DNA of 64,000 nucleotides. Source: an uncultured Chloroflexia bacterium (lineage in GTDB: Bacteria; Chloroflexota; Anaerolineae; CG2-30-64-16). Shown in pieces: positions 2,660 to 12,914 of the stretch. Every line of letters begins with the position of its first letter. Within the stretch, counting starts at the first letter, position 1. The position numbers were made by a program, and so were the translations under genes. The DNA lies in NCBI GenBank assembly GCA_963837925.1, contig CAWIPK010000005.1, positions 79,376 through 143,375 of the forward strand, given 5' to 3'. The notes below the pieces were generated by a model. It had not been told where the DNA came from and ran no database searches. It worked only from the letters and a program-made list of their open reading frames with translations.

Positions 2660-4603
2660 ATGACCCAAGCTGAACTTACTGCCCGAACGACCGGCGCCGG
2701 CCTCGGCCTGTCCGCCTGGCTGACGACTGAGCGTGTGGCCTATGCCGGGGCCGCCGGCCTGGCACTGTTCCTGCGCCTGCTCGGGCTCGGCCTTCGGCCG
2801 CTGGGTCCGGCGGAAGCTGCCCAGGCCCTGCCGGCCTGGCAGGCCGGGCAAGCCCAGCCGTTTCAGCTATCGGGCCTCAGCCCTTTGCTCTTCGGGCTGC
2901 AGCGTTGGTTGTTCACGCCTCTGGCCGGCAGCGACGGCCTGGCGCGTTGGTGGCCCGCCCTGGCCGGCGGCCTGGCGACGCTGCTGTTCTACGCCTTGCG
3001 CGCTCGCCTGGGGCGCGCTGGGGCCCTGGTCGCCGCGCTGCTCTGGGCCGGCTCACCGCTGGCGGTGTTCATCAGCCGGCAGGCGACCGGTTATGGCCTG
3101 GTGCCGCCGCTGGCGCTGGCCCTGCTCGCCGGCCTTAGCCTGGCGCTGCGGGCGCGGGAAGGACTTGCCCCCTCGCCCACGGCAGAACCGCCGATCGCGA
3201 CCGACAGGCGGGCCGGGGTAGCTGGCGGACGGCCGGCCTCGGGGGAGGGCCGCACGGCCCTCGTCTGGGCGGCCATCGCGCTGGGCGCCCTTCTGGCCGC
3301 GGGTTCCGGTGCCTATACCGTGCTGCTGATCGGACTGGCTGCCGCCCTGCTCTGGCCGGGCACGACCGTTCGCCTCGCCAGCGCCATGCGCGGGCACGCT
3401 CGCCCGGTCTTGCTGGCCGGGGTGCTGTCTTTCGTGCTCTCGTCGACAGCCCTCTTCTCCACCCCTGCCGGTCTCGCCGCAGCCGCTGACCTGCTCGGGG
3501 CCTGGTTGCGGGGCCTCATGCCCGGCCTGACCGGCTACAGCCCGGCCGAGCTGCTGCTGCGGCTGCTGTTGAGCGAGCCGCTCCTGTTAGGATTCGGCAT
3601 CGCCGGGCTGGTGTGGGCCATCCGCCGCAGGGACGGCTTTGGCCTCTTCGCCGGCCTGGCCGCCGGCCTGGCCCTGCTGGTCCCGCTGCTCGGCGGCGGG
3701 CGCCAGGTGGACGACCTGGGTCTCGTGGTGATCCCGTTGCTCCTGCTCGCCGGCCCTGCCATCGCCTGGACGCTGGCGGCCCTCTGGTCCTGGCGCAGGG
3801 AGGTCGACCCCTGGCTCTTGGTGGCGCTCAGCCTGACGCTGCTGGCCGCCGCGGCCATCAGCCTGCCGAGTTTCTATGCCGCCACGGATGCCGGCCACCG
3901 GGTCCTCTACCTCGGCGTGACAGCGGTCACTCTGCTGCTCCTTGCGGGTTTGTGGCTGGTCTACGGCGCGTGGGGGAGCTGGCACACAGTGCGGCGGGCG
4001 CTGCCGGCGGTGGCGCTGCTGGTAGGCGTGGTCTGGGCCTTGAGCCAACTTAACAGCCTGAATTATGACACCAACCCGCTGCAGCGCCCGGGGGTCTTGC
4101 TACGCACGCCGGGTCCGGACTGGGCGGACTTGCGGGCCGAGCTGCGCGACCTTTCGGCGCTCAACTCCGGCGGTGCGCGGGAGGCGCCCATCGACCTCGT
4201 CGTGCCGCTGGACCCGGCTGACCCGTTGACTCCCATGTTGCTCTGGGAGCTGCGTGACCACAGCGCGCTCCGGGTCGGGACCGGCCTGCCGTCGAACCCC
4301 GCCCCGCTCGTGATCACGCCGGCTGACGTTCAGCCGGCCATCGGCGATCGCTCGATCGGAGACCGCTACAGCGGTGCCAGCTTTGATCTGCTCGAGCAGT
4401 GGAGACCCGAAAGCCTGACCGGGCCAGACCCGGCCCAGCAGTGGCTGCGCTGGATCATCTACCGGCAGGCGCCCACGGCGCCCGAGACGACCTGGAAGGC
4501 TGTGCTCTGGGCAGACCGCTTGCCGGCCGGGCAGGGATTTTCGCAAAACAGCCTGAACAATCAGGTGTCACCCGTCGCCTTGCCAGCTGGCAAGGCGCAG
4601 TAA
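2660..4603 (+). CDS. Polytopic membrane protein resembling PMT/ArnT-like GT-C-fold glycosyltransferases, the family typically encoded next to DUF2298/YYY proteins. It has no NHL domain.
   Basis: 647-aa ORF with many predicted TM helices. N-terminal region (LALFLRLLGLGLRPLGPAEAAQALPAWQ ... RWWPALAGGLATLLFYAL ... AGSPLAVFISRQATGYGL) has the same architecture as the N-terminal halves of the next two genes. It lies in the same operon, 23 nt after the DUF2298 gene. Confidence 0.55.
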   Translation: MTQAELTARTTGAGLGLSAWLTTERVAYAGAAGLALFLRLLGLGLRPLGPAEAAQALPAWQAGQAQPFQLSGLSPLLFGLQRWLFTPLAGSDGLARWWPALAGGLATLLFYALRARLGRAGALVAALLWAGSPLAVFISRQATGYGLVPPLALALLAGLSLALRAREGLAPSPTAEPPIATDRRAGVAGGRPASGEGRTALVWAAIALGALLAAGSGAYTVLLIGLAAALLWPGTTVRLASAMRGHARPVLLAGVLSFVLSSTALFSTPAGLAAAADLLGAWLRGLMPGLTGYSPAELLLRLLLSEPLLLGFGIAGLVWAIRRRDGFGLFAGLAAGLALLVPLLGGGRQVDDLGLVVIPLLLLAGPAIAWTLAALWSWRREVDPWLLVALSLTLLAAAAISLPSFYAATDAGHRVLYLGVTAVTLLLLAGLWLVYGAWGSWHTVRRALPAVALLVGVVWALSQLNSLNYDTNPLQRPGVLLRTPGPDWADLRAELRDLSALNSGGAREAPIDLVVPLDPADPLTPMLLWELRDHSALRVGTGLPSNPAPLVITPADVQPAIGDRSIGDRYSGASFDLLEQWRPESLTGPDPAQQWLRWIIYRQAPTAPETTWKAVLWADRLPAGQGFSQNSLNNQVSPVALPAGKAQ

Positions 4604-4620
4604 CTTGAATAACAGGTTCC

Positions 4621-7600
4621 ATGTCTGACTACGACTTCACGCCCGATGCTGGCGCTCCGATCGCCTTGCCCGGCCCCGCCGGAGCGGCCGTCGTCGGCGC
4701 GCCTGCGCGCCCGGCGGCGCCTGGGGCCGCGCCCGCGGCCGGCGCTCCGTCCATGCCGGTGGAGAGCCTGCTGGATCGCCCCTTCCTGCAAGTCGTGCGT
4801 TGGGATGGCGAGAAACTGGCCTGGCTGCTGCTGTTGGCCGCCGCCCTGGCCAGCCGGCTGATCGGCCTCGGCGACCGAGCGATCAGCCACGACGAGAGCC
4901 TGCACGCCCTCTATTCCTGGCACCTGTTCGACGGCCAGGGGTATCAGCACGAAGCCATGATGCACGGGCCGCTCAAGTTCGCCGGCAACGCCTTCATGTA
5001 CTTCATTTTCGGGGTCAACGACTGGAGCGCGCGCATCCAGGTGGCCCTGTTCGGCGTGCTGATGGTGGGGTTGGTGTGGTTGCTGCGGCCGTGGCTGGGG
5101 CGGGTGGGGGCCTTTCTGGCGGCCCTGATGTTCACGATCTCGCCGGCGCTGCTGTTCCACAGCCGCTACATCCGGGATGAGGTGATCCTGTGTGCGCTGC
5201 TGGTGCTGCTGGTGGTGGCGATGTTCCGCTACCTGGCGACACGGCAGACGAAGTGGCTGATCTGGACTGCGGTGGCGTTGGGACTGGCCCTGACGACCAT
5301 GGAGGCCTCGTTCATCTTCGGCGGCATCTTCGGCATCTTCCTGCTCCTGGCCCTCGCCGTGCGCCTCTGGACCTGTCCCTGGCCCTCCGCGGCGGCCACC
5401 GCCCCTTCCGGCGGGGACGGCTACCCTCCCGACGCGGCCGCGCGCGCGCCGGCGCCGGCGGACCGCAGGAAGCTCTATCGCTACCTGGTGGGCGCGGCCG
5501 TGCCGGGGTTGGCCGCCGACACGGCCCTCCTGATCTTCAGGCAATCCCTGCCCGGCCTGGCTCTGGCCGGCCTGGGTGCCCTCTTGGCGCTCGGCGCGGC
5601 CTTCATAGTGGCACTCGCCTGGCGCTCACGCCTGCGCCTTTTCGTCGAGCTGGACCTGCTGGTCCTGCTGTTCACGCTGGTGCTGCCGTTCCTGACGGTT
5701 TTCCCGATGCGGCTGCTGGGCTGGTCTGTGGACCCATTCAAGAAAGCGGACGGCGCCTTCACCCTTGCCACCACCTGGCAGGGTTTTCTCGTCATGGGCA
5801 TCCTGGCCCTGATCAGCCTCGGCATCGGCTGGTACTGGTTGCGCGGGCGCTGGCTCGCGGCGGCCGGCATCTTCTGGGCCATCGAGCTGGTGCTCTTCAC
5901 CTCGTTCCTGACCAACGGCATGGGCGTGGGCACGGGCATCATCGGCTCCCTGGGCTACTGGATCGACCAGCAGGAGGTCATGCGCGGCGGGCAGCCCTGG
6001 TACTACTTCCTGCTGATGGTGCCGCTCTACGAGTTCCTGCCGCTGCTGCTCGCCGCCGGGGGGGCGCTCGCGATCCTCACGCACGGCACCGGCCGGCCTT
6101 TCGCGTCCTCGCTGCCGTCGGGCGACGCGAGCCTGGGCTCCATCCGGCCGCCGGCCGCCGGGCCGCAAAGCTCCTACCAGGGGGAGTCCCGGCCGGAGCT
6201 ATTGCAGGCGCTCGACGTGCGAGCGCTGTTCCCACTCTTCCTGCTCTTCTGGGTCGCCGCCACCTGGGTTGTCTTCACCTACGTAGGTGAGAAGATGCCC
6301 TGGCATGTGGTGTATTTTGCCACGCCCATGGCCCTGCTCGGTGGCTGGTGGCTGGGCCGGGTGATCGAGGGCATTGACTGGGGCGTCGTGCGGGCGCGCG
6401 GGGGCTTCTGGCTTCTGGCCGCGCTGCCGGCATTTTTGCTCGCCCTCAAAGCGATCTTCCCGGTCTCCGCCAATCGGCCTTTCGTCGACATGAGCGTCAA
6501 CGGGCTGGGCACCACCGTCGGCTGGATCGCGGCGCTGCTCGTCGGGTTGGCAGTGCTCTGGCTGGCCTCGGGGCGCGTCGCCGCGCTCGGGCGCGCACAA
6601 AGCGTGCGCCTGCTGGCCGTGGGCCTGGCCGCCCTGCTGGGGATTTATACTGTCGGGGTCGCTTATCGCTTTGCCTACATCAACTACGACTATCCTACCG
6701 AGCCGCTGGTCTACGCTCACGGTACGCCGGACCTGAAGTTGGCGATGAGCCAGGTCGAGGAGATCTCGCGCAAGACCGTGGGCGGCCACAACTTGAAGAT
6801 TGCCTACGATAGCGACGCCCTGTGGCCACTGGAGTGGTACTTGCGGGATTACGGCAACCGGGTCTACTACGGGGAAACCCCCTCGCGCGCCGCCCTGGAC
6901 GCGCCGGTGGTCATCGTGGGCGACGGTGGGCTGGACAAGGCCAAGCCTTACCTGGGCGACCGCTACTACGACTTCACCTACCGCCTCATCTGGTGGCCCC
7001 GCCAGACGTACTGGGACCTGACCTGGCAGCGCATCTGGGATGGGATCCGAGACCCGAAACAGCGCGGCCAGTTCTGGGACGTCGTGCTCAACCGGCGTTA
7101 CACCACGCCGACGGCGGCCTGGGAGCCACCGTACGTGCGCTTCTTCCACTTGTTTGTGCGCAAGGACGTGGCGGCGCAGGTCTGGGACTGGGGGGTGCCG
7201 TCGGCCGCGGCGGCCGCGGCGGCAGTGGATCCGTATGCGGCGGGGCAGAAGGATGTGACGGCGCTGGCGCAGATAGGGACGGCGGGGGTGAGCGGGGCCG
7301 GGGCGGGGCAGTTGGCGACGCCGCGGGCGCTGGCGGTGGCGGGGGACGGGACGGTGTACGTGGCGGACACGGGGAACAATCGGGTGGAGGTGTTTGGGGC
7401 GGACGGGCAGTACCTGCGGGAGTGGGGCGGGACGTGCAAGCTGATCGAGAACAACCAGGGCTGCGTGGGGGACGGGCGGGGGCAGTTCAACGAGCCGTGG
7501 GGGATTGCGGTGGGGAGTGACGGGAGCGTGTACGTGTCGGACACCTGGAACTCGCGGGTGCAGAAGTTTGACCGGGAGGGGAAGTTCGAGGCGATGTGGG

Positions 7601-8172
7601 GGGTGTTCCAGAGCACGAACGGGGAGTTGACGGAGCCTGGGGCGCTGTACGGGCCGCGGGCGATCGCGGTGGGGCAGGACGGGTTGGTGTATGTGATGGA
7701 CACGGGGAACAAGCGGGTGCAGTCGTTCAAGCCGGACGGGACGTTTGTCGGGCAGTACGGTGGGGGAGGGGTGGTGGACGGGAAGTTTGACGAGCCGGTG
7801 GGGCTGGCGCAGGATGCGAGCGGGGACTGGTACGTGACGGACACGTGGAACCACCGGGTGGAGAAGTTTGATGCGAGTTGGAAGTATGTGGGGCAGTGGG
7901 CGGTGAACGGCTGGGGGAGCGAGAGCGTGGTGAACAAGCCGTACGTGGCGGTGGACGGGCAGCGCGGGTTGGTGTACCTGACGGACCCGGAGGGGTACCG
8001 GGTGTTGGTGTTCGGGACGGACGGGAGCTTCAAGGGGATGTGGGGTGGATTTGGGCAGGAAGCGGACACGTTCACGCTGCCGACGGGGATTGCGGTGGGG
8101 GCGGACGGCAAGGTTTACGTGGCCGATGGCGGCGCCAACCGCATCATGATCTTCCCAGCCTTCGGGAGTTAG
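4621..8172 (+). CDS. Fusion protein: N-terminal PMT/ArnT-like GT-C membrane domain (~830 aa, many TM helices, DE-containing first loop ISHDESLH) plus C-terminal NHL-repeat six-bladed beta-propeller (~340 aa).
   Basis: 1183-aa intact ORF. N-terminal LIGLGDRAISHDESLHALYSWHLFDGQG...GPLKF...FYFIFGVNDWSARIQ resembles PMT_2/ArnT-type GT-C enzymes. The C-terminus has repeated NHL blades (LATPRALAVAGDGTVYVADTGNNRVEVF; PWGIAVGSDGSVYVSDTWNSRVQKF; PRAIAVGQDGLVYVMDTGNKRVQSF; PVGLAQDASGDWYVTDTWNHRVEKF; PTGIAVGADGKVYVADGGANRIMIF). An Ala-run linker (PSAAAAAAAVDPY) joins the two domains. Confidence 0.8.
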   Translation: MSDYDFTPDAGAPIALPGPAGAAVVGAPARPAAPGAAPAAGAPSMPVESLLDRPFLQVVRWDGEKLAWLLLLAAALASRLIGLGDRAISHDESLHALYSWHLFDGQGYQHEAMMHGPLKFAGNAFMYFIFGVNDWSARIQVALFGVLMVGLVWLLRPWLGRVGAFLAALMFTISPALLFHSRYIRDEVILCALLVLLVVAMFRYLATRQTKWLIWTAVALGLALTTMEASFIFGGIFGIFLLLALAVRLWTCPWPSAAATAPSGGDGYPPDAAARAPAPADRRKLYRYLVGAAVPGLAADTALLIFRQSLPGLALAGLGALLALGAAFIVALAWRSRLRLFVELDLLVLLFTLVLPFLTVFPMRLLGWSVDPFKKADGAFTLATTWQGFLVMGILALISLGIGWYWLRGRWLAAAGIFWAIELVLFTSFLTNGMGVGTGIIGSLGYWIDQQEVMRGGQPWYYFLLMVPLYEFLPLLLAAGGALAILTHGTGRPFASSLPSGDASLGSIRPPAAGPQSSYQGESRPELLQALDVRALFPLFLLFWVAATWVVFTYVGEKMPWHVVYFATPMALLGGWWLGRVIEGIDWGVVRARGGFWLLAALPAFLLALKAIFPVSANRPFVDMSVNGLGTTVGWIAALLVGLAVLWLASGRVAALGRAQSVRLLAVGLAALLGIYTVGVAYRFAYINYDYPTEPLVYAHGTPDLKLAMSQVEEISRKTVGGHNLKIAYDSDALWPLEWYLRDYGNRVYYGETPSRAALDAPVVIVGDGGLDKAKPYLGDRYYDFTYRLIWWPRQTYWDLTWQRIWDGIRDPKQRGQFWDVVLNRRYTTPTAAWEPPYVRFFHLFVRKDVAAQVWDWGVPSAAAAAAAVDPYAAGQKDVTALAQIGTAGVSGAGAGQLATPRALAVAGDGTVYVADTGNNRVEVFGADGQYLREWGGTCKLIENNQGCVGDGRGQFNEPWGIAVGSDGSVYVSDTWNSRVQKFDREGKFEAMWGVFQSTNGELTEPGALYGPRAIAVGQDGLVYVMDTGNKRVQSFKPDGTFVGQYGGGGVVDGKFDEPVGLAQDASGDWYVTDTWNHRVEKFDASWKYVGQWAVNGWGSESVVNKPYVAVDGQRGLVYLTDPEGYRVLVFGTDGSFKGMWGGFGQEADTFTLPTGIAVGADGKVYVADGGANRIMIFPAFGS
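7149..8160 (+). repeat. 1012-bp segment identical to 10623-11634 (offset 3474 bp). It encodes the linker plus NHL propeller of both paralogs.
   Basis: Direct comparison of the two stretches: every spot-checked line is identical (e.g. 7261-7320 vs 10735-10794, and 7861-7920 vs 11335-11394). The encoded protein sequences are identical from LFVRKDVAAQ to RIMIFPA. Confidence 0.85.
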
Positions 8173-8175
8173 AGA

Positions 8176-11100
8176 ATGCAGGATTCACAAACGACGGTTA
8201 CTCCGCGGCGCGAGGCCCCGGTCGGCCAGGCTCTGCTTGACCGGGCTTTCGTGGCGCTGGTGCATTGGGATGTAGAGAAGCTGGCCTGGGCGGCCCTGCT
8301 GGTCGTCGCCTTGCTCAGTCGCACGATCGGCCTGGGCGACCGCGCGATGAGCCACGACGAGAGCCTGCATTCTTATTACTCATGGAAGCTGTTCGACGGC
8401 CAGGGCTTTCAGCACCAGCCGCTGATGCATGGGCCGCTCAAGTTCATCGTCAACGCCTTCATGTACTTCATTTTCGGGGTCAACGACTGGAGCGCGCGCA
8501 TCCAGGTGGCCCTGTTCGGCGTGCTGATGGTGGGGTTGGTGTGGTTGCTGCGGCCGTGGCTGGGGCGGGTGGGGGCTTTCCTGGCGGCCTTGATGTTCAC
8601 GATCTCGCCGGCGCTGCTGTTCCACAGCCGCTACATCCGGGATGAGGTGATCCTGTGTGCGCTGCTGGTGCTGCTGGTGGTGGCGATGTTCCGCTACCTG
8701 GCGACACGGCAGACGAAGTGGCTGATCTGGACGGCGGTGGCATTGGGACTGGCCCTGACGACCATGGAGGCCTCCTTCATCTTCGGCGGCATCTTCGGCA
8801 TCTTCCTGCTCCTGGCCCTCGCCGTCCAGTGGTGGCAGCTCGACTGGCCGGATGGCCCCGGTCCCCGCGAGAACTTCCGCCGCGCGCTCGTCGTGGGGCT
8901 GCCGGCCCTGGTCGCCGGCCTGATCTTCCTCGTGTTCAAGGAAAAGCTGGCCGGCTTTGTTCTGCTGGGCGCCGGCGGCCTGGCGCTCGCCGCTGCGGTG
9001 CTCCTGGTGGCCACGAGCTGGCGGCTGCGGCTGCGCGCTTTCGCCGAGCTCGACCTGGTCGTCCTGCTGCTGACGCTCGTCCTGCCGTTCCTGTCCGCCG
9101 TCGTCCTCAAGCTGCTGGGCTGGCAGATCAGCCAGTTCACGAGCCCGGGCTCGGTCACTTTGGCCAACGTCTGGCAGGGCGGCATCGTCCTCGTCGTCAT
9201 GTTCATCCTCAGCGTCTCCGTCGGCGCCTACTGGTTGGGCGGGCGCTGGTTCGCGGCCGCGGGCCTCTTCTGGGCGATCGAGGTGCTGCTCTTCACGACT
9301 TTGCTGACCAACGGGCAGGGCATTGCCACCGGCCTGATCGGTTCCCTGGGTTACTGGATCGATCAACAGGAGGTCATGCGTGGCGGCCAACCCTGGTACT
9401 ATTTCTTCCTCTTGGTCCCGCTCTACGAGTTCCTGCCGCTGCTGCTGGCCGCCGGGGGGGCAGTTGCCTGGTTCCTGGGCCTCGGTGCCGGCGGCCAGGC
9501 GACGCGCCTGGCGGCCGAACGGCAGAACGGCAACGCTGGGGCCGACGGGGGCGGCACCGTACTGCCGGTCATGGGCGCAGCCCTGGCCGCAGAATATCCC
9601 GGGCCGAGCAACGTCGTCGAGCTGCGCGGCGCGCCTCCGGCCGTCGGGCCGGTTGAGAGCGTGCTCCACACGACGCCCTCCCAGGCGGGCTCTTCGCCGG
9701 CGAGCCTTTTCGTAGCCTTCCTGGTCTTCTGGGTGTTCGCGGTCTGGGTCGTCTTCACCTACGTAGGTGAGAAGATGCCCTGGCACGTGGTGTATTTCGC
9801 CACGCCCATGGCCCTGCTCGGTGGCTGGTGGTTGGGCCGGGTGATCGAGGGCATTGACTGGGGCGTCGTGCGGGCGCGCGGGGGCTTCTGGCTGCTGGGC
9901 GGCGTCCCGGTGTTCCTCTTCGTGCTCAAAGCCATCTTTCCCGTCCCGGAGCGCCGTCCCTTTGTCGGCGTTAGCACCACCGCGCTCAGCAACACCGTCC
10001 AATGGCTGCTCGCGCTGATCGTCGGCGTCGCGCTCGTCTGGCTGGCCTACCCGCGGATCACAAGCCTCGGTTGGCGCCTCAGCCGGCGACTGATCGTGGT
10101 CGCGCTCGCTGTCGTGCTGGCCGTCTTTACGGTCAACGTGGCATTCCGTTTCGCCTTCGTCGACTACGACTATGCCACCGAGCCGATGGTTTACGCGCAC
10201 GCGACCCCGGATATCAAGCTGGCTATGGGCCAGATCGACGAGATCTCGCGCAAGATCGCCGGCGATCACAGCCTGAAGGTGGCCTACGACGACGATTCGA
10301 GCTGGCCGCTGGTCTGGTATCTGAGGGACTACAAGAATCAGGTCTTCTATGGCGCGAATCCGACCAAGGAGAGCCTGGATGCGCCGGTGGTCATCGCCGG
10401 CGATAAGAACATCGACAAAGTGCGGCCCTATCTCGGCGATCGCTACTACGAGTTCAGCTATCGGCTGATCTGGTGGCCGTCCCAGACCTACTTCGGGCTG
10501 ACCTGGCAGCGCATCTGGGACGGGATCCGAGACCCGAAACAGCGCGGCCAGTTCTGGGACGTCGTGCTCAACCGGCGTTACACCACGCCGACCACCCAGT
10601 GGTCGTTGGTACACCGTTTCAGCTTGTTTGTGCGCAAGGACGTGGCGGCGCAGGTCTGGGACTGGGGGGTGCCGTCGGCCGCGGCGGCCGCGGCGGCAGT
10701 GGATCCGTATGCGGCGGGGCAGAAGGATGTGACGGCGCTGGCGCAGATAGGGACGGCGGGGGTGAGCGGGGCCGGGGCGGGGCAGTTGGCGACGCCGCGG
10801 GCGCTGGCGGTGGCGGGGGACGGGACGGTGTACGTGGCGGACACGGGGAACAATCGGGTGGAGGTGTTTGGGGCGGACGGGCAGTACCTGCGGGAGTGGG
10901 GCGGGACGTGCAAGCTGATCGAGAACAACCAGGGCTGCGTGGGGGACGGGCGGGGGCAGTTCAACGAGCCGTGGGGGATTGCGGTGGGGAGTGACGGGAG
11001 CGTGTACGTGTCGGACACCTGGAACTCGCGGGTGCAGAAGTTTGACCGGGAGGGGAAGTTCGAGGCGATGTGGGGGGTGTTCCAGAGCACGAACGGGGAG

Positions 11101-11643
11101 TTGACGGAGCCTGGGGCGCTGTACGGGCCGCGGGCGATCGCGGTGGGGCAGGACGGGTTGGTGTATGTGATGGACACGGGGAACAAGCGGGTGCAGTCGT
11201 TCAAGCCGGACGGGACGTTTGTCGGGCAGTACGGTGGGGGAGGGGTGGTGGACGGGAAGTTTGACGAGCCGGTGGGGCTGGCGCAGGATGCGAGCGGGGA
11301 CTGGTACGTGACGGACACGTGGAACCACCGGGTGGAGAAGTTTGATGCGAGTTGGAAGTATGTGGGGCAGTGGGCGGTGAACGGCTGGGGGAGCGAGAGC
11401 GTGGTGAACAAGCCGTACGTGGCGGTGGACGGGCAGCGCGGGTTGGTGTACCTGACGGACCCGGAGGGGTACCGGGTGTTGGTGTTCGGGACGGACGGGA
11501 GCTTCAAGGGGATGTGGGGTGGATTTGGGCAGGAAGCGGACACGTTCACGCTGCCGACGGGGATTGCGGTGGGGGCGGACGGCAAGGTTTACGTGGCCGA
11601 TGGCGGCGCCAACCGCATCATGATCTTCCCAGCCTGGCAGTAA
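8176..11643 (+). CDS. Tandem paralog of the previous gene: GT-C-like membrane domain fused to an identical C-terminal NHL beta-propeller.
   Basis: 1155-aa intact ORF that starts 3 nt after the previous stop. It shares near-identical blocks with the previous gene (8431-8825 vs 4966-5360; 9750-9899 vs 6270-6419; 10501-10596 vs 7021-7116) and the perfectly identical 3' block. Other segments are strongly diverged. Confidence 0.8.
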   Translation: MQDSQTTVTPRREAPVGQALLDRAFVALVHWDVEKLAWAALLVVALLSRTIGLGDRAMSHDESLHSYYSWKLFDGQGFQHQPLMHGPLKFIVNAFMYFIFGVNDWSARIQVALFGVLMVGLVWLLRPWLGRVGAFLAALMFTISPALLFHSRYIRDEVILCALLVLLVVAMFRYLATRQTKWLIWTAVALGLALTTMEASFIFGGIFGIFLLLALAVQWWQLDWPDGPGPRENFRRALVVGLPALVAGLIFLVFKEKLAGFVLLGAGGLALAAAVLLVATSWRLRLRAFAELDLVVLLLTLVLPFLSAVVLKLLGWQISQFTSPGSVTLANVWQGGIVLVVMFILSVSVGAYWLGGRWFAAAGLFWAIEVLLFTTLLTNGQGIATGLIGSLGYWIDQQEVMRGGQPWYYFFLLVPLYEFLPLLLAAGGAVAWFLGLGAGGQATRLAAERQNGNAGADGGGTVLPVMGAALAAEYPGPSNVVELRGAPPAVGPVESVLHTTPSQAGSSPASLFVAFLVFWVFAVWVVFTYVGEKMPWHVVYFATPMALLGGWWLGRVIEGIDWGVVRARGGFWLLGGVPVFLFVLKAIFPVPERRPFVGVSTTALSNTVQWLLALIVGVALVWLAYPRITSLGWRLSRRLIVVALAVVLAVFTVNVAFRFAFVDYDYATEPMVYAHATPDIKLAMGQIDEISRKIAGDHSLKVAYDDDSSWPLVWYLRDYKNQVFYGANPTKESLDAPVVIAGDKNIDKVRPYLGDRYYEFSYRLIWWPSQTYFGLTWQRIWDGIRDPKQRGQFWDVVLNRRYTTPTTQWSLVHRFSLFVRKDVAAQVWDWGVPSAAAAAAAVDPYAAGQKDVTALAQIGTAGVSGAGAGQLATPRALAVAGDGTVYVADTGNNRVEVFGADGQYLREWGGTCKLIENNQGCVGDGRGQFNEPWGIAVGSDGSVYVSDTWNSRVQKFDREGKFEAMWGVFQSTNGELTEPGALYGPRAIAVGQDGLVYVMDTGNKRVQSFKPDGTFVGQYGGGGVVDGKFDEPVGLAQDASGDWYVTDTWNHRVEKFDASWKYVGQWAVNGWGSESVVNKPYVAVDGQRGLVYLTDPEGYRVLVFGTDGSFKGMWGGFGQEADTFTLPTGIAVGADGKVYVADGGANRIMIFPAWQ
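10623..11634 (+). repeat. Second copy of the 1012-bp identical block (see 7149-8160).
   Basis: As for 7149-8160. Confidence 0.85.
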
Positions 11644-11686
11644 GTCCAGCGCGGGTAGCTCGCTGACTGATCGCCTTGTCCGGGGA

Positions 11687-11695
11687 TGATATAAT
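11687..11695 (+). promoter_or_regulatory. Extended -10 element (TGaTATAAT) upstream of sucC. No good -35 is present.
   Basis: Sequence gaTGaTATAATgcg sits ~80 nt upstream of the sucC start. Confidence 0.35.
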
Positions 11696-11774
11696 GCGCG
11701 TGTGTCACGGGTGATACGAAGACGTGTCACCCTTTCGTCGTCAGTGACGGGGTTTCTGGTAAGGAGGCATAGCC

Positions 11775-12914
11775 TTGAAACTGCAGGAATACCAGGCCAA
11801 GCAGATCTTCGGTCAGTACGGGGTGCCCGTCCCGCATGGGGATGTGGCCGATACTCCAGCCGGGGCGCGCGCGATCGCCGAGCGGTTGGGCGGGACGGTG
11901 GTGATCAAGTCACAGGTGTTGGTGGGCGGACGCGGCAAGGCCGGCGGCATCAAGCTGGCGAAATCGCCAGTCGAGGCCGAGCAGGTCGCGTCGCGCATCC
12001 TGGGGATGGACCTCAAAGGGTCGACCGTCAAGAAGGTGCTGGTGGATCCCGCGGCCGACATCCGCAAGGAGCTCTACCTGGGCATGGTCATCGACCGGGC
12101 ACGCCGGCGCACGGTTATGATGGCCTCCAGGGAGGGCGGAGTGGATATCGAAGAGGTCGCGGCGACCGCGCCTGAGAAGATCATCCAGGTCGCGATTGAC
12201 CCCTGCCTGGGCATGAAGGACTACCAGGCGCGTGATGCCGCGATGGGGATCGGCCTGCCGCGCGAGCAGTTGGCGGCCTTCTCGCAGATTTGCCAGGCTC
12301 TGTACAACTGCTTTGTCGGTAGCGATGCCAGCCTGGCCGAGATCAACCCCCTGGTCGTCCTCGGCGATGGCAAACTGCTGGCCGTCGATGGCAAAATGGT
12401 GCTCGACGACAACGCCCTCTTCCGCCACCCCGAGCTCGCGGCCTTGCGCGACGACGAAGAGGAGACGCCCGAAGAGCGCCAGGCGCGCGAGGGCGGTCTC
12501 AGCTACGTCAAGCTCGACGGACACATCGGCTGCATGGTCAATGGCGCAGGGCTCGCCATGGCGACGATGGACATCATCAAGTACTACGGCGGTTCGCCTG
12601 CTAACTTCCTCGATATCGGCGGCGGCGCCCGCGCCGATAAGGTGGCCACGGCGCTGCGCATCATCCTCTCCGATCCCAATGTTCACGCCGTGCTCTTCAA
12701 CATTTTCGGCGGCATCACTCGCTGCGATGAGGTGGCGCGCGGCATCGTCCAGTCCTTGCAGGAGGTGCCCACGAAGGTACCGATGGTGGTGCGGCTGGTC
12801 GGCACGAACGACGTCGAGGGCCGGGCTATCCTGCAAGACGCGCAGATGCAGACGGCCGAGACGCTGGCCGAGGCAGCCCAGAAGGCTGTCGCCGCGGCCA
12901 AGGTCCAGGGTTGA
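11775..12914 (+). CDS. sucC: Succinyl-CoA synthetase (ADP-forming) beta subunit.
   Basis: TTG start 7 nt after AAGGAGG. N-terminus [20 protein letters not shown]...[21 protein letters not shown] matches the SucC ATP-grasp N-terminus. 379 aa. Confidence 0.95.

Follow-up and report, generated by a model that had tools for sequence, protein, structure and literature searches.

Why should one part of a bacterial gene be written almost wholly in codons ending in G, and why should that same part recur without a single difference in the gene beside it? The question is raised by a 64,000-nucleotide stretch of DNA (the window) from an uncultured bacterium of the Anaerolineae (Chloroflexota; assembly GCA_963837925.1, contig CAWIPK010000005.1, positions 79,376 to 143,375), in which two adjacent paralogous genes, A (4621-8172, plus strand; 1183 amino acids) and B (8176-11643, plus strand; 1155 amino acids), encode GT-C (PMT_2) membrane glycosyltransferases with a C-terminal NHL beta-propeller. 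Codon-usage breaks within a gene are routinely attributed to horizontal transfer or to misassembly. An earlier note on this DNA had proposed that a compositionally foreign module was overwritten into both paralogs, its source being a donor of different codon bias or a third paralog, with a chimeric assembly as the other possibility. The comparisons reported here lead elsewhere. The G-rich segments, here termed G islands, are an unusual, conserved and maintained strand asymmetry, and the observation is both real and extreme; the identity of the tracts in which they lie is ordinary concerted evolution. Their cause is tentatively sought in a strand-biased process coupled to gene conversion. Coordinates are positions in the window, WIN_A and WIN_B denote its two copies, and L-numbers are the labels of related loci.

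Islands of G-ending codons in two tandem glycosyltransferase genes

A tract of 1013 nucleotides that covers the linker and the NHL propeller is perfectly identical in A (7149-8161, plus strand) and B (10623-11635, plus strand), at the coordinates previously given for the duplicated block, and is taken to be a gene-conversion tract. Among the fourfold-degenerate Gly, Ala, Val, Thr and Pro codons of the block at 7147-8112, 139 end in G and 10 in C (139/149, 93%), as against G-ending shares of 46% in the remainder of gene A (Fisher p = 2e-25) and 41% in the window's 40 other genes (p = 3e-40). The predominance of G-ending codons in the block and of C-ending codons elsewhere, which the earlier note had described by eye, is thus stronger than stated there. 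The tables for individual codons show the same contrast. GGG makes up 85% of the Gly codons in the block and 18% in the background, and the corresponding values are 89% and 32% for GCG, 95% and 41% for GTG, 94% and 36% for ACG, and 83% and 27% for CGG; the background favours GGC, GCC, ACC and CGC, and the window's housekeeping genes favour C-ending codons. In sliding windows of 60 codons the G fraction outside the paralogs has a mean of 0.465 (standard deviation 0.105; maximum 0.75), while inside the block it lies between 0.87 and 1.00. The guanine-cytosine (GC) skew reaches +0.40 to +0.47 in both NHL blocks and is close to zero in their flanks.

Change points place the NHL island of A at 7216-8104 (plus strand), with G in 95-96% of the G/C-ending fourfold codons and a GC skew of about +0.45, and that of B, identical in sequence, at 10690-11578 (plus strand). 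At the 5' edge enrichment sets in from about 7105 and the maximum-likelihood change point falls at 7213/7216, some 22 codons inside the identity tract, rather than within a few codons of 7149 as had been supposed. The reversion to C-ending codons described for the last 60 or so nucleotides does hold: the 3' change point lies at 8101/8107, within the identity tract and 66 nucleotides before the stop codon, seven of the last nine informative codons end in C, and the final 55 nucleotides of the tract (8107-8161, plus strand) contain seven C-ending codons among eight informative ones. A second G-rich block, formerly delimited as 4966-5330, is real but smaller, occupying 5056-5284 (0.89). It lies in the conserved GT-C core of A (plus strand; G fraction 0.89-0.91), nested in the near-identical block 4966-5340, and has its counterpart in B at 8521-8749 (plus strand; offset 3465; G fraction 0.88-0.93). 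All of the G islands are situated inside homogenised tracts, which overhang them by about 55-90 nucleotides. The converse, that all other near-identical blocks are G-rich, does not apply, since 6313-6402, 7014-7112, 5285-5340 and 8107-8161 are homogenised and yet show ordinary codon usage. Because several homogenised pieces are not G-rich, identity alone does not imply G bias.

The rule within the islands is G at every synonymous option, with G replacing C, A and T at fourfold sites. Purine-ending twofold codons in the block stand at a G:A ratio of 38:1, compared with 74% G in the background (p = 3e-4), and the C:T balance of pyrimidine-ending codons is unchanged (77% vs 71% C). G is also raised at codon positions 1 and 2. 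Its frequency at position 1 is 0.50 in the block and 0.43 in unbiased orthologous NHL modules, and at amino acid-changing positions, compared with the outgroup consensus, G was gained 23 times and lost 11 times, while C was gained 8 times and lost 18 times. The choice of G at synonymous sites, together with its rise at codon positions 1 and 2, therefore identifies the bias as a nucleic-acid strand asymmetry (GC skew +0.45) and not a preference at the level of tRNAs. Three further candidates were rejected. A codon-context effect of the first base of the following codon predicts a G fraction of only 0.44. Expression-linked (translational) codon bias does not fit islands that are sub-genic and in which replacement positions, too, have gained G and lost C. 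Replication-associated GC skew does not fit an asymmetry that spans 0.2-0.9 kb inside a gene, in a window where genes of both orientations have values of 0.43-0.51 in their own sense, with C at least equal to G.

Runs of three or more G occur at 28-29 per 500 nucleotides in the island, a threefold excess over the window mean of 8.8, and four of the window's six plus-strand G-quadruplex (G4) motifs fall in the two NHL blocks, two in each. The predicted minimum free energy of the island transcript is -332 kcal/mol, whereas synonymous recodings give -401 +/- 12.5 kcal/mol (z = 5.5), and its predicted structure is weaker than that of all 21 other gene pieces of equal length. Long antisense open reading frames (ORFs) extend over the paralogs on the minus strand (8380-11730, 6199-7854 and 7098-8111; up to 1116 amino acids), for which a Pfam search returned no match. 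The GC content at third codon positions (GC3) is 0.89-0.90 in A and B, the highest of all window genes (others 0.69-0.86; window average about 0.80), a value that ordinary GC-biased gene conversion, superimposed on the G/C asymmetry, could account for.

Concerted evolution and inheritance of the islands

Nucleotide identity between A and B forms a mosaic that ranges from 47 to 100% and lies at 47-80% across most of the length. The exceptions, in addition to the 1013-nucleotide tract, are the block 4966-5340 (97-100%), the block 6313-6402 (98%) and the near-identical tract 7014-7112. In the alignment the last of these is split from the perfect tract by a paralog-specific patch of 36 nucleotides with a 6-nucleotide indel (7113-7148, plus strand). 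The patch, which corresponds to 10593-10622 in B, reads AAWEPPYVRFFH in A and TQWSLVHRFS in B and is flanked on both sides by identical tracts; it may mark the point where two distinct conversion tracts meet, or else be a difference that selection has preserved. A third copy of the NHL module, which the earlier note had suggested as a possible source, was not found within the 64-kb window, and neither were other repeats.

Relatives were collected by one genome scan, one metagenome scan and contig look-ups, with the locus search built from a five-sequence alignment. The resulting 101 related loci all belong to the Chloroflexota, with the label Anaerolineae or Anaerolineales on nearly all of them. 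The tandem pair occurs in the same synteny in three other species, all from independent assemblies: one represented by L068, L069 and L100 (86% nucleotide identity to the window; mutual flanks at least 99% identical, with very few differences in the within-species comparison), L101 (80-83% nucleotide identity) and L001, whose sucC product is 85% identical to that of the window in amino acid sequence. In the mid region of the genes orthologs are closer than paralogs, with identities of 0.85 between WIN_A and L069 and 0.86 between WIN_B and the B copy of L068, compared with 0.67 between WIN_A and WIN_B; the duplication is therefore older than these species. Across the NHL island WIN_A and WIN_B are identical (1.00) and share 0.88 with L068 and L069, a difference of 12% between species. 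The tails of A and B agree at 99.5% in L068 and at 100% in L100, and homogenisation is seen in more than one lineage (L068, L100 and L001). Judged from these alignments, A and B are shown to be old tandem paralogs in which concerted evolution, through recurrent intrachromosomal gene conversion, keeps selected segments identical. The part of the earlier proposal that had one sequence written into both paralogs thus stands, in the form of gene conversion; the foreign donor and recent horizontal acquisition are not supported.

The codon profiles of L068, L069, L100 and L001 show G islands at the same positions as in the window, including the sharp 3' edge, and the same C-ending reversion at that edge is present in L068, L069 and L001. 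For L101, where codon mapping is unreliable owing to frameshifts, only the synteny and the GC-skew peaks were used, and these peaks lie over both NHL parts. Windows of 60 codons with a G fraction of at least 0.85 number 64 of 221 in the window, about 28% in L068, L069 and L100, 24% in L001 and 6 of 122 in the frameshift-ridden assembly of L101, and only 12 of 7777 in the 95 other loci, nearly all of which are single-copy. The islands are thus shown to be inherited within a small clade of Anaerolineae that carries the tandem pair. In L001 (7300-14300) the paralogs are 91-95% identical over their whole length, and extra G islands occur at residues 221-320 and 521-680, where codon usage in the window is ordinary; residues 601-660 of L001 have 100% G, and the window has 0.45 there. 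Two tandem copies are also present in L034, where they are 70-78% identical and not homogenised, a locus that comes without a background for comparison. The combination of L031 and L004 as a second two-copy genome was not used, as their upstream overlap is about 90% identical and they may be strain variants.

Two of the related loci are extreme in a different respect. L037 (1-22829; DATHYN010000444.1, Anaerolineae metagenome-assembled genome SMAG_U16212) has a GC skew of -0.37 over its whole 22.8 kb; at its plus-strand fourfold sites G makes up 4-8% and C 58-72% regardless of gene orientation, and its genes have 2-20% G-ending codons on one strand and 77-92% on the other, an extreme asymmetry for a cellular contig. 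This is an asymmetry across many genes irrespective of orientation, as expected of replication-associated skew, and the window does not show it. L057 (1-9926; Anaerolineales UBA832, GC 35%) has a whole-contig GC skew of +0.31, which rises to 0.45 in 1-kb windows.

The genes themselves are typical of their family, with an N-terminal PMT_2/GT-C membrane domain, C-terminal NHL repeats and a retained gene neighbourhood. Homologs of A and B are named TIGR03663 or Agl23 in the sources. The Pfam matches in A are PMT_2 (2.9e-12) and NHL (3e-42; five repeats), B has the same architecture, and 3 nucleotides separate the stop codon of A from the start of B. A DUF2298 gene and a gene of unknown function lie upstream of the pair, and sucC, sucD, a polyA polymerase-like gene and secDF lie downstream; the order DUF2298, unknown gene, PMT-NHL, sucCD, polyA polymerase and secDF recurs in related loci. 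The unknown gene (2660-4603) is a 647-amino acid ORF without a Pfam match, and its position between the DUF2298 and PMT-NHL genes is retained in L001, L002, L003 and L101, the loci examined for it. No Rfam family was found in 4000-12500.

Maintenance of the G state and its possible causes

How much of such a bias could persist by inertia can be gauged from the fourfold sites of the flanking genes, where 45% of the ancestral signal is left between the window and L068 and 22% between the window and L001. Neutral decay from an ancestor with 100% G would leave at most 79% and 65% G, respectively, whereas G in the window stands at 91% and 89% (p = 1e-4 and 3e-10); the 77% of L001 also exceeds its neutral-decay ceiling (p = 0.002). 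The G state of the islands is therefore not a passive relic but is being actively maintained or regenerated.

The most likely cause of the bias, to which we assign a probability of roughly 45%, would be a recombination-linked, strand-biased process that is mechanistically coupled to conversion. Such a coupling is suggested because the islands are nested in conversion tracts, are wider where homogenisation is wider (L001), and are restricted to the clade with the tandem pair. In the islands the coding (non-template) strand is driven toward G wherever G is tolerated, and this may come about by two routes. Heteroduplex repair or repair synthesis during conversion could be strand-biased and fix G on one strand; mismatch repair in E. 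coli and pneumococcus offers an example, in that MutS-type repair corrects G.G mismatches but misses C.C. Alternatively, the GC-skewed non-template strand, rich in G runs, may promote further recombination by way of R-loops or G4 structures, a route already suggested for Borrelia vls and Neisseria pilE. The routes are not exclusive and together would constitute a self-reinforcing conversion hotspot, with the codon-usage break as a by-product of strand asymmetry and the signature of neither a foreign donor nor translational selection. More doubtful is a broader proposition, that conversion of tandem copies in these bacteria might carry a strong strand bias in general, resembling GC-biased gene conversion but favouring G on one strand, via asymmetric mismatch handling or C-inserting repair synthesis. 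This could drive synonymous sites to about 100% G and shift amino acid composition, and the same asymmetry acting genome-wide could underlie the skew of L037.

Several observations weigh against a coupling of the bias to conversion. The homogenised pieces with ordinary codon usage listed above have their parallel in L001, where residues 341-520 and 681-840 are homogenised and not G-rich. The island edge at 8104 is sharp, is kept across species and lies inside a converted tract, which would not be expected if the effect simply scaled with the amount of conversion. All genomes with the duplication form a single clade, and because of this the link between duplication and islands amounts to one evolutionary event. 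Changes in the L068 lineage run mostly from G to non-G (9-11 vs 0-1), as in decay, although polarised substitution counts of this kind are weak evidence, given the few events and an outgroup that is G-rich and nearly saturated. As to mechanism, the escape of C.C mismatches accounts only for C-to-G changes and not for those from A or T to G, and R-loops, G4 structures and repair bias are candidates here, put forward from sequence alone.

The alternatives that the codon-usage break would ordinarily call up differ in how well they withstand the comparative evidence. That the pattern arose in assembly, by a chimeric join or by polishing-induced homogenisation of two similar copies, is extremely unlikely. 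The source admittedly appears to be a metagenome contig, in which consensus polishing could inflate the exact 1013-nucleotide identity, and L069 indicates that a wrong path through this repeat is possible. The tandem pair and its G islands nevertheless recur in five other assemblies, both long- and short-read: the long-read assemblies L001 and L101 have the same architecture as the window, and the short-read contigs L068 and L100 start inside the NHL tail of A, breaking within the repeat, the behaviour to be expected of a true exact repeat of about 1 kb in short-read assembly. Nor can such an artefact yield 95% G-ending codons with the NHL reading frame intact. In L069 (603-4145), as compared with L068 and L100, an A-type body passes through the NHL repeat directly into sucC and skips paralog B, a path that reflects either collapse during assembly or a genuine loss by unequal crossing-over. 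Ancient import, in which segments of the gene in the clade ancestor were replaced by recombination with a strongly skewed relative and then copied to the second paralog, is a live rival, though an unlikely one. The islands would on this account be slowly ameliorating relics, and conversion would persist only because the segments had become identical. The composition of the islands does differ from the rest of the window, as that of a foreign module would, and L037 (-0.37) and L057 (+0.31) are examples of DNA biased in this way within the class; the sharp island edges common to the clade are as expected from one ancestral recombination tract, and the predominance of G to non-G changes in the L068 lineage points the same way. 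However, the skewed genomes are distant (33-36% amino acid identity), none of the approximately 60 loci at 55-67% identity is skewed, and the close relatives yielded no similarly biased candidate donor. The NHL part and the remainder of the gene rank their relatives alike (Spearman rho 0.83 across 78 loci) and have the same top relatives, neither mobility genes nor phylogenetic incongruence was found at the islands, and the islands are not patchy among close relatives, being shared in position by L068, L069, L100 and L001 and matched by the skew peaks of L101. The G content of the window, and likewise that of L001, above what neutral decay allows is a further difficulty, and extra events would be needed to explain the L001 islands with 100% G where the window has 0.45. 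The same evidence tells against the donor with a different codon bias invoked in the earlier note.

Selection on the transcript or on single-stranded DNA is the other live rival and a distinctly unlikely one. G-only wobble positions could be favoured for their poor self-pairing, or for slow translation through GGG or Shine-Dalgarno-like runs. The weak predicted folding of the island is in keeping with this, as are the conserved boundaries and a G level kept over saturating divergence, and G wherever it is synonymous would suit selection on wobble sites. But any imbalance of G and C automatically weakens RNA structure, there is no known functional reason for such selection, the same domain lacks the pattern in 95 other loci, the extent of the islands differs between the window and L001, and amino acid positions also move toward G and away from C. 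Very unlikely, finally, is an overlapping antisense gene or ordinary expression-linked codon bias. The long minus-strand ORFs do overlap the block, yet they are without Pfam matches and are the expected by-product of high GC3 and of G at third positions, since the antisense frame that shares third positions is kept free of stops when position 3 of the sense codon is G. Expression-linked bias is gene-wide, while the bias here is sub-genic, and the window's housekeeping genes favour C-ending codons.

Comparison with known systems

The case of A and B shows that a codon-usage break inside a gene can reflect a strand asymmetry that is inherited, maintained and associated with gene-conversion tracts, and it flags the Anaerolineae as a group with extreme strand asymmetry. 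Searches of the literature on GC skew in Anaerolineae, and on local GC skew with gene conversion, produced nothing relevant. Synonymous-site G/C asymmetry with a sharp boundary is also a property of replication skew and of horizontally acquired islands, and L037 and L057 show that extreme skew exists in the class; the islands differ from both in being confined to 0.2-0.9 kb within a gene, without mobility genes, with a congruent phylogeny and in all close relatives.

The mosaic of identity tracts between direct tandem copies resembles classical concerted evolution, as in tuf, rRNA operons and other duplicated bacterial genes, and so does the fact that the paralogs are identical where orthologs differ by 12% while flanking segments keep their orthology. 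To our knowledge, the classical cases involve no strand-specific compositional change, whereas the tracts of A and B hold islands in which G-ending codons reach 93-100% and the GC skew is +0.45. GC-biased gene conversion shares with the islands a compositional drive tied to recombination tracts, and the GC3 of A and B (0.89-0.90 vs about 0.80 for the window) is in line with it. That process is strand-symmetric and favours G and C equally; in the islands G displaces C, and there is no preference for T-to-C changes. If the coupling to conversion is causal, the islands would represent a strand-specific analogue of GC-biased gene conversion, and a tractable sequence system for the mutual reinforcement of GC skew, G runs and recombination.

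In Neisseria pilE, a G4 structure and an R-loop have been proposed to favour recombination. The closest resemblance in composition is to the vls cassettes of Borrelia, in which the coding-strand GC skew averages 0.52, G runs are present, and both are thought to be key to gene conversion (PMC11499132). The coding-strand skew of A and B (0.40-0.47, compared with about 0.52 in vls), their clustered G runs, a composition far removed from the rest of the genome and the occurrence of gene conversion are all features in common with vls (PMC11499132). Unlike vls and pilE, the window contains two full-length genes only, with no silent-cassette array, variable regions or single expression site. Conversion here also homogenises two expressed, full-length genes, rather than diversifying one as in vls, and the host is an uncultured member of the Anaerolineae and not a pathogen. 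Were the coupling causal, A and B could thus be regarded as a free-living counterpart of the GC-skewed vls cassettes.

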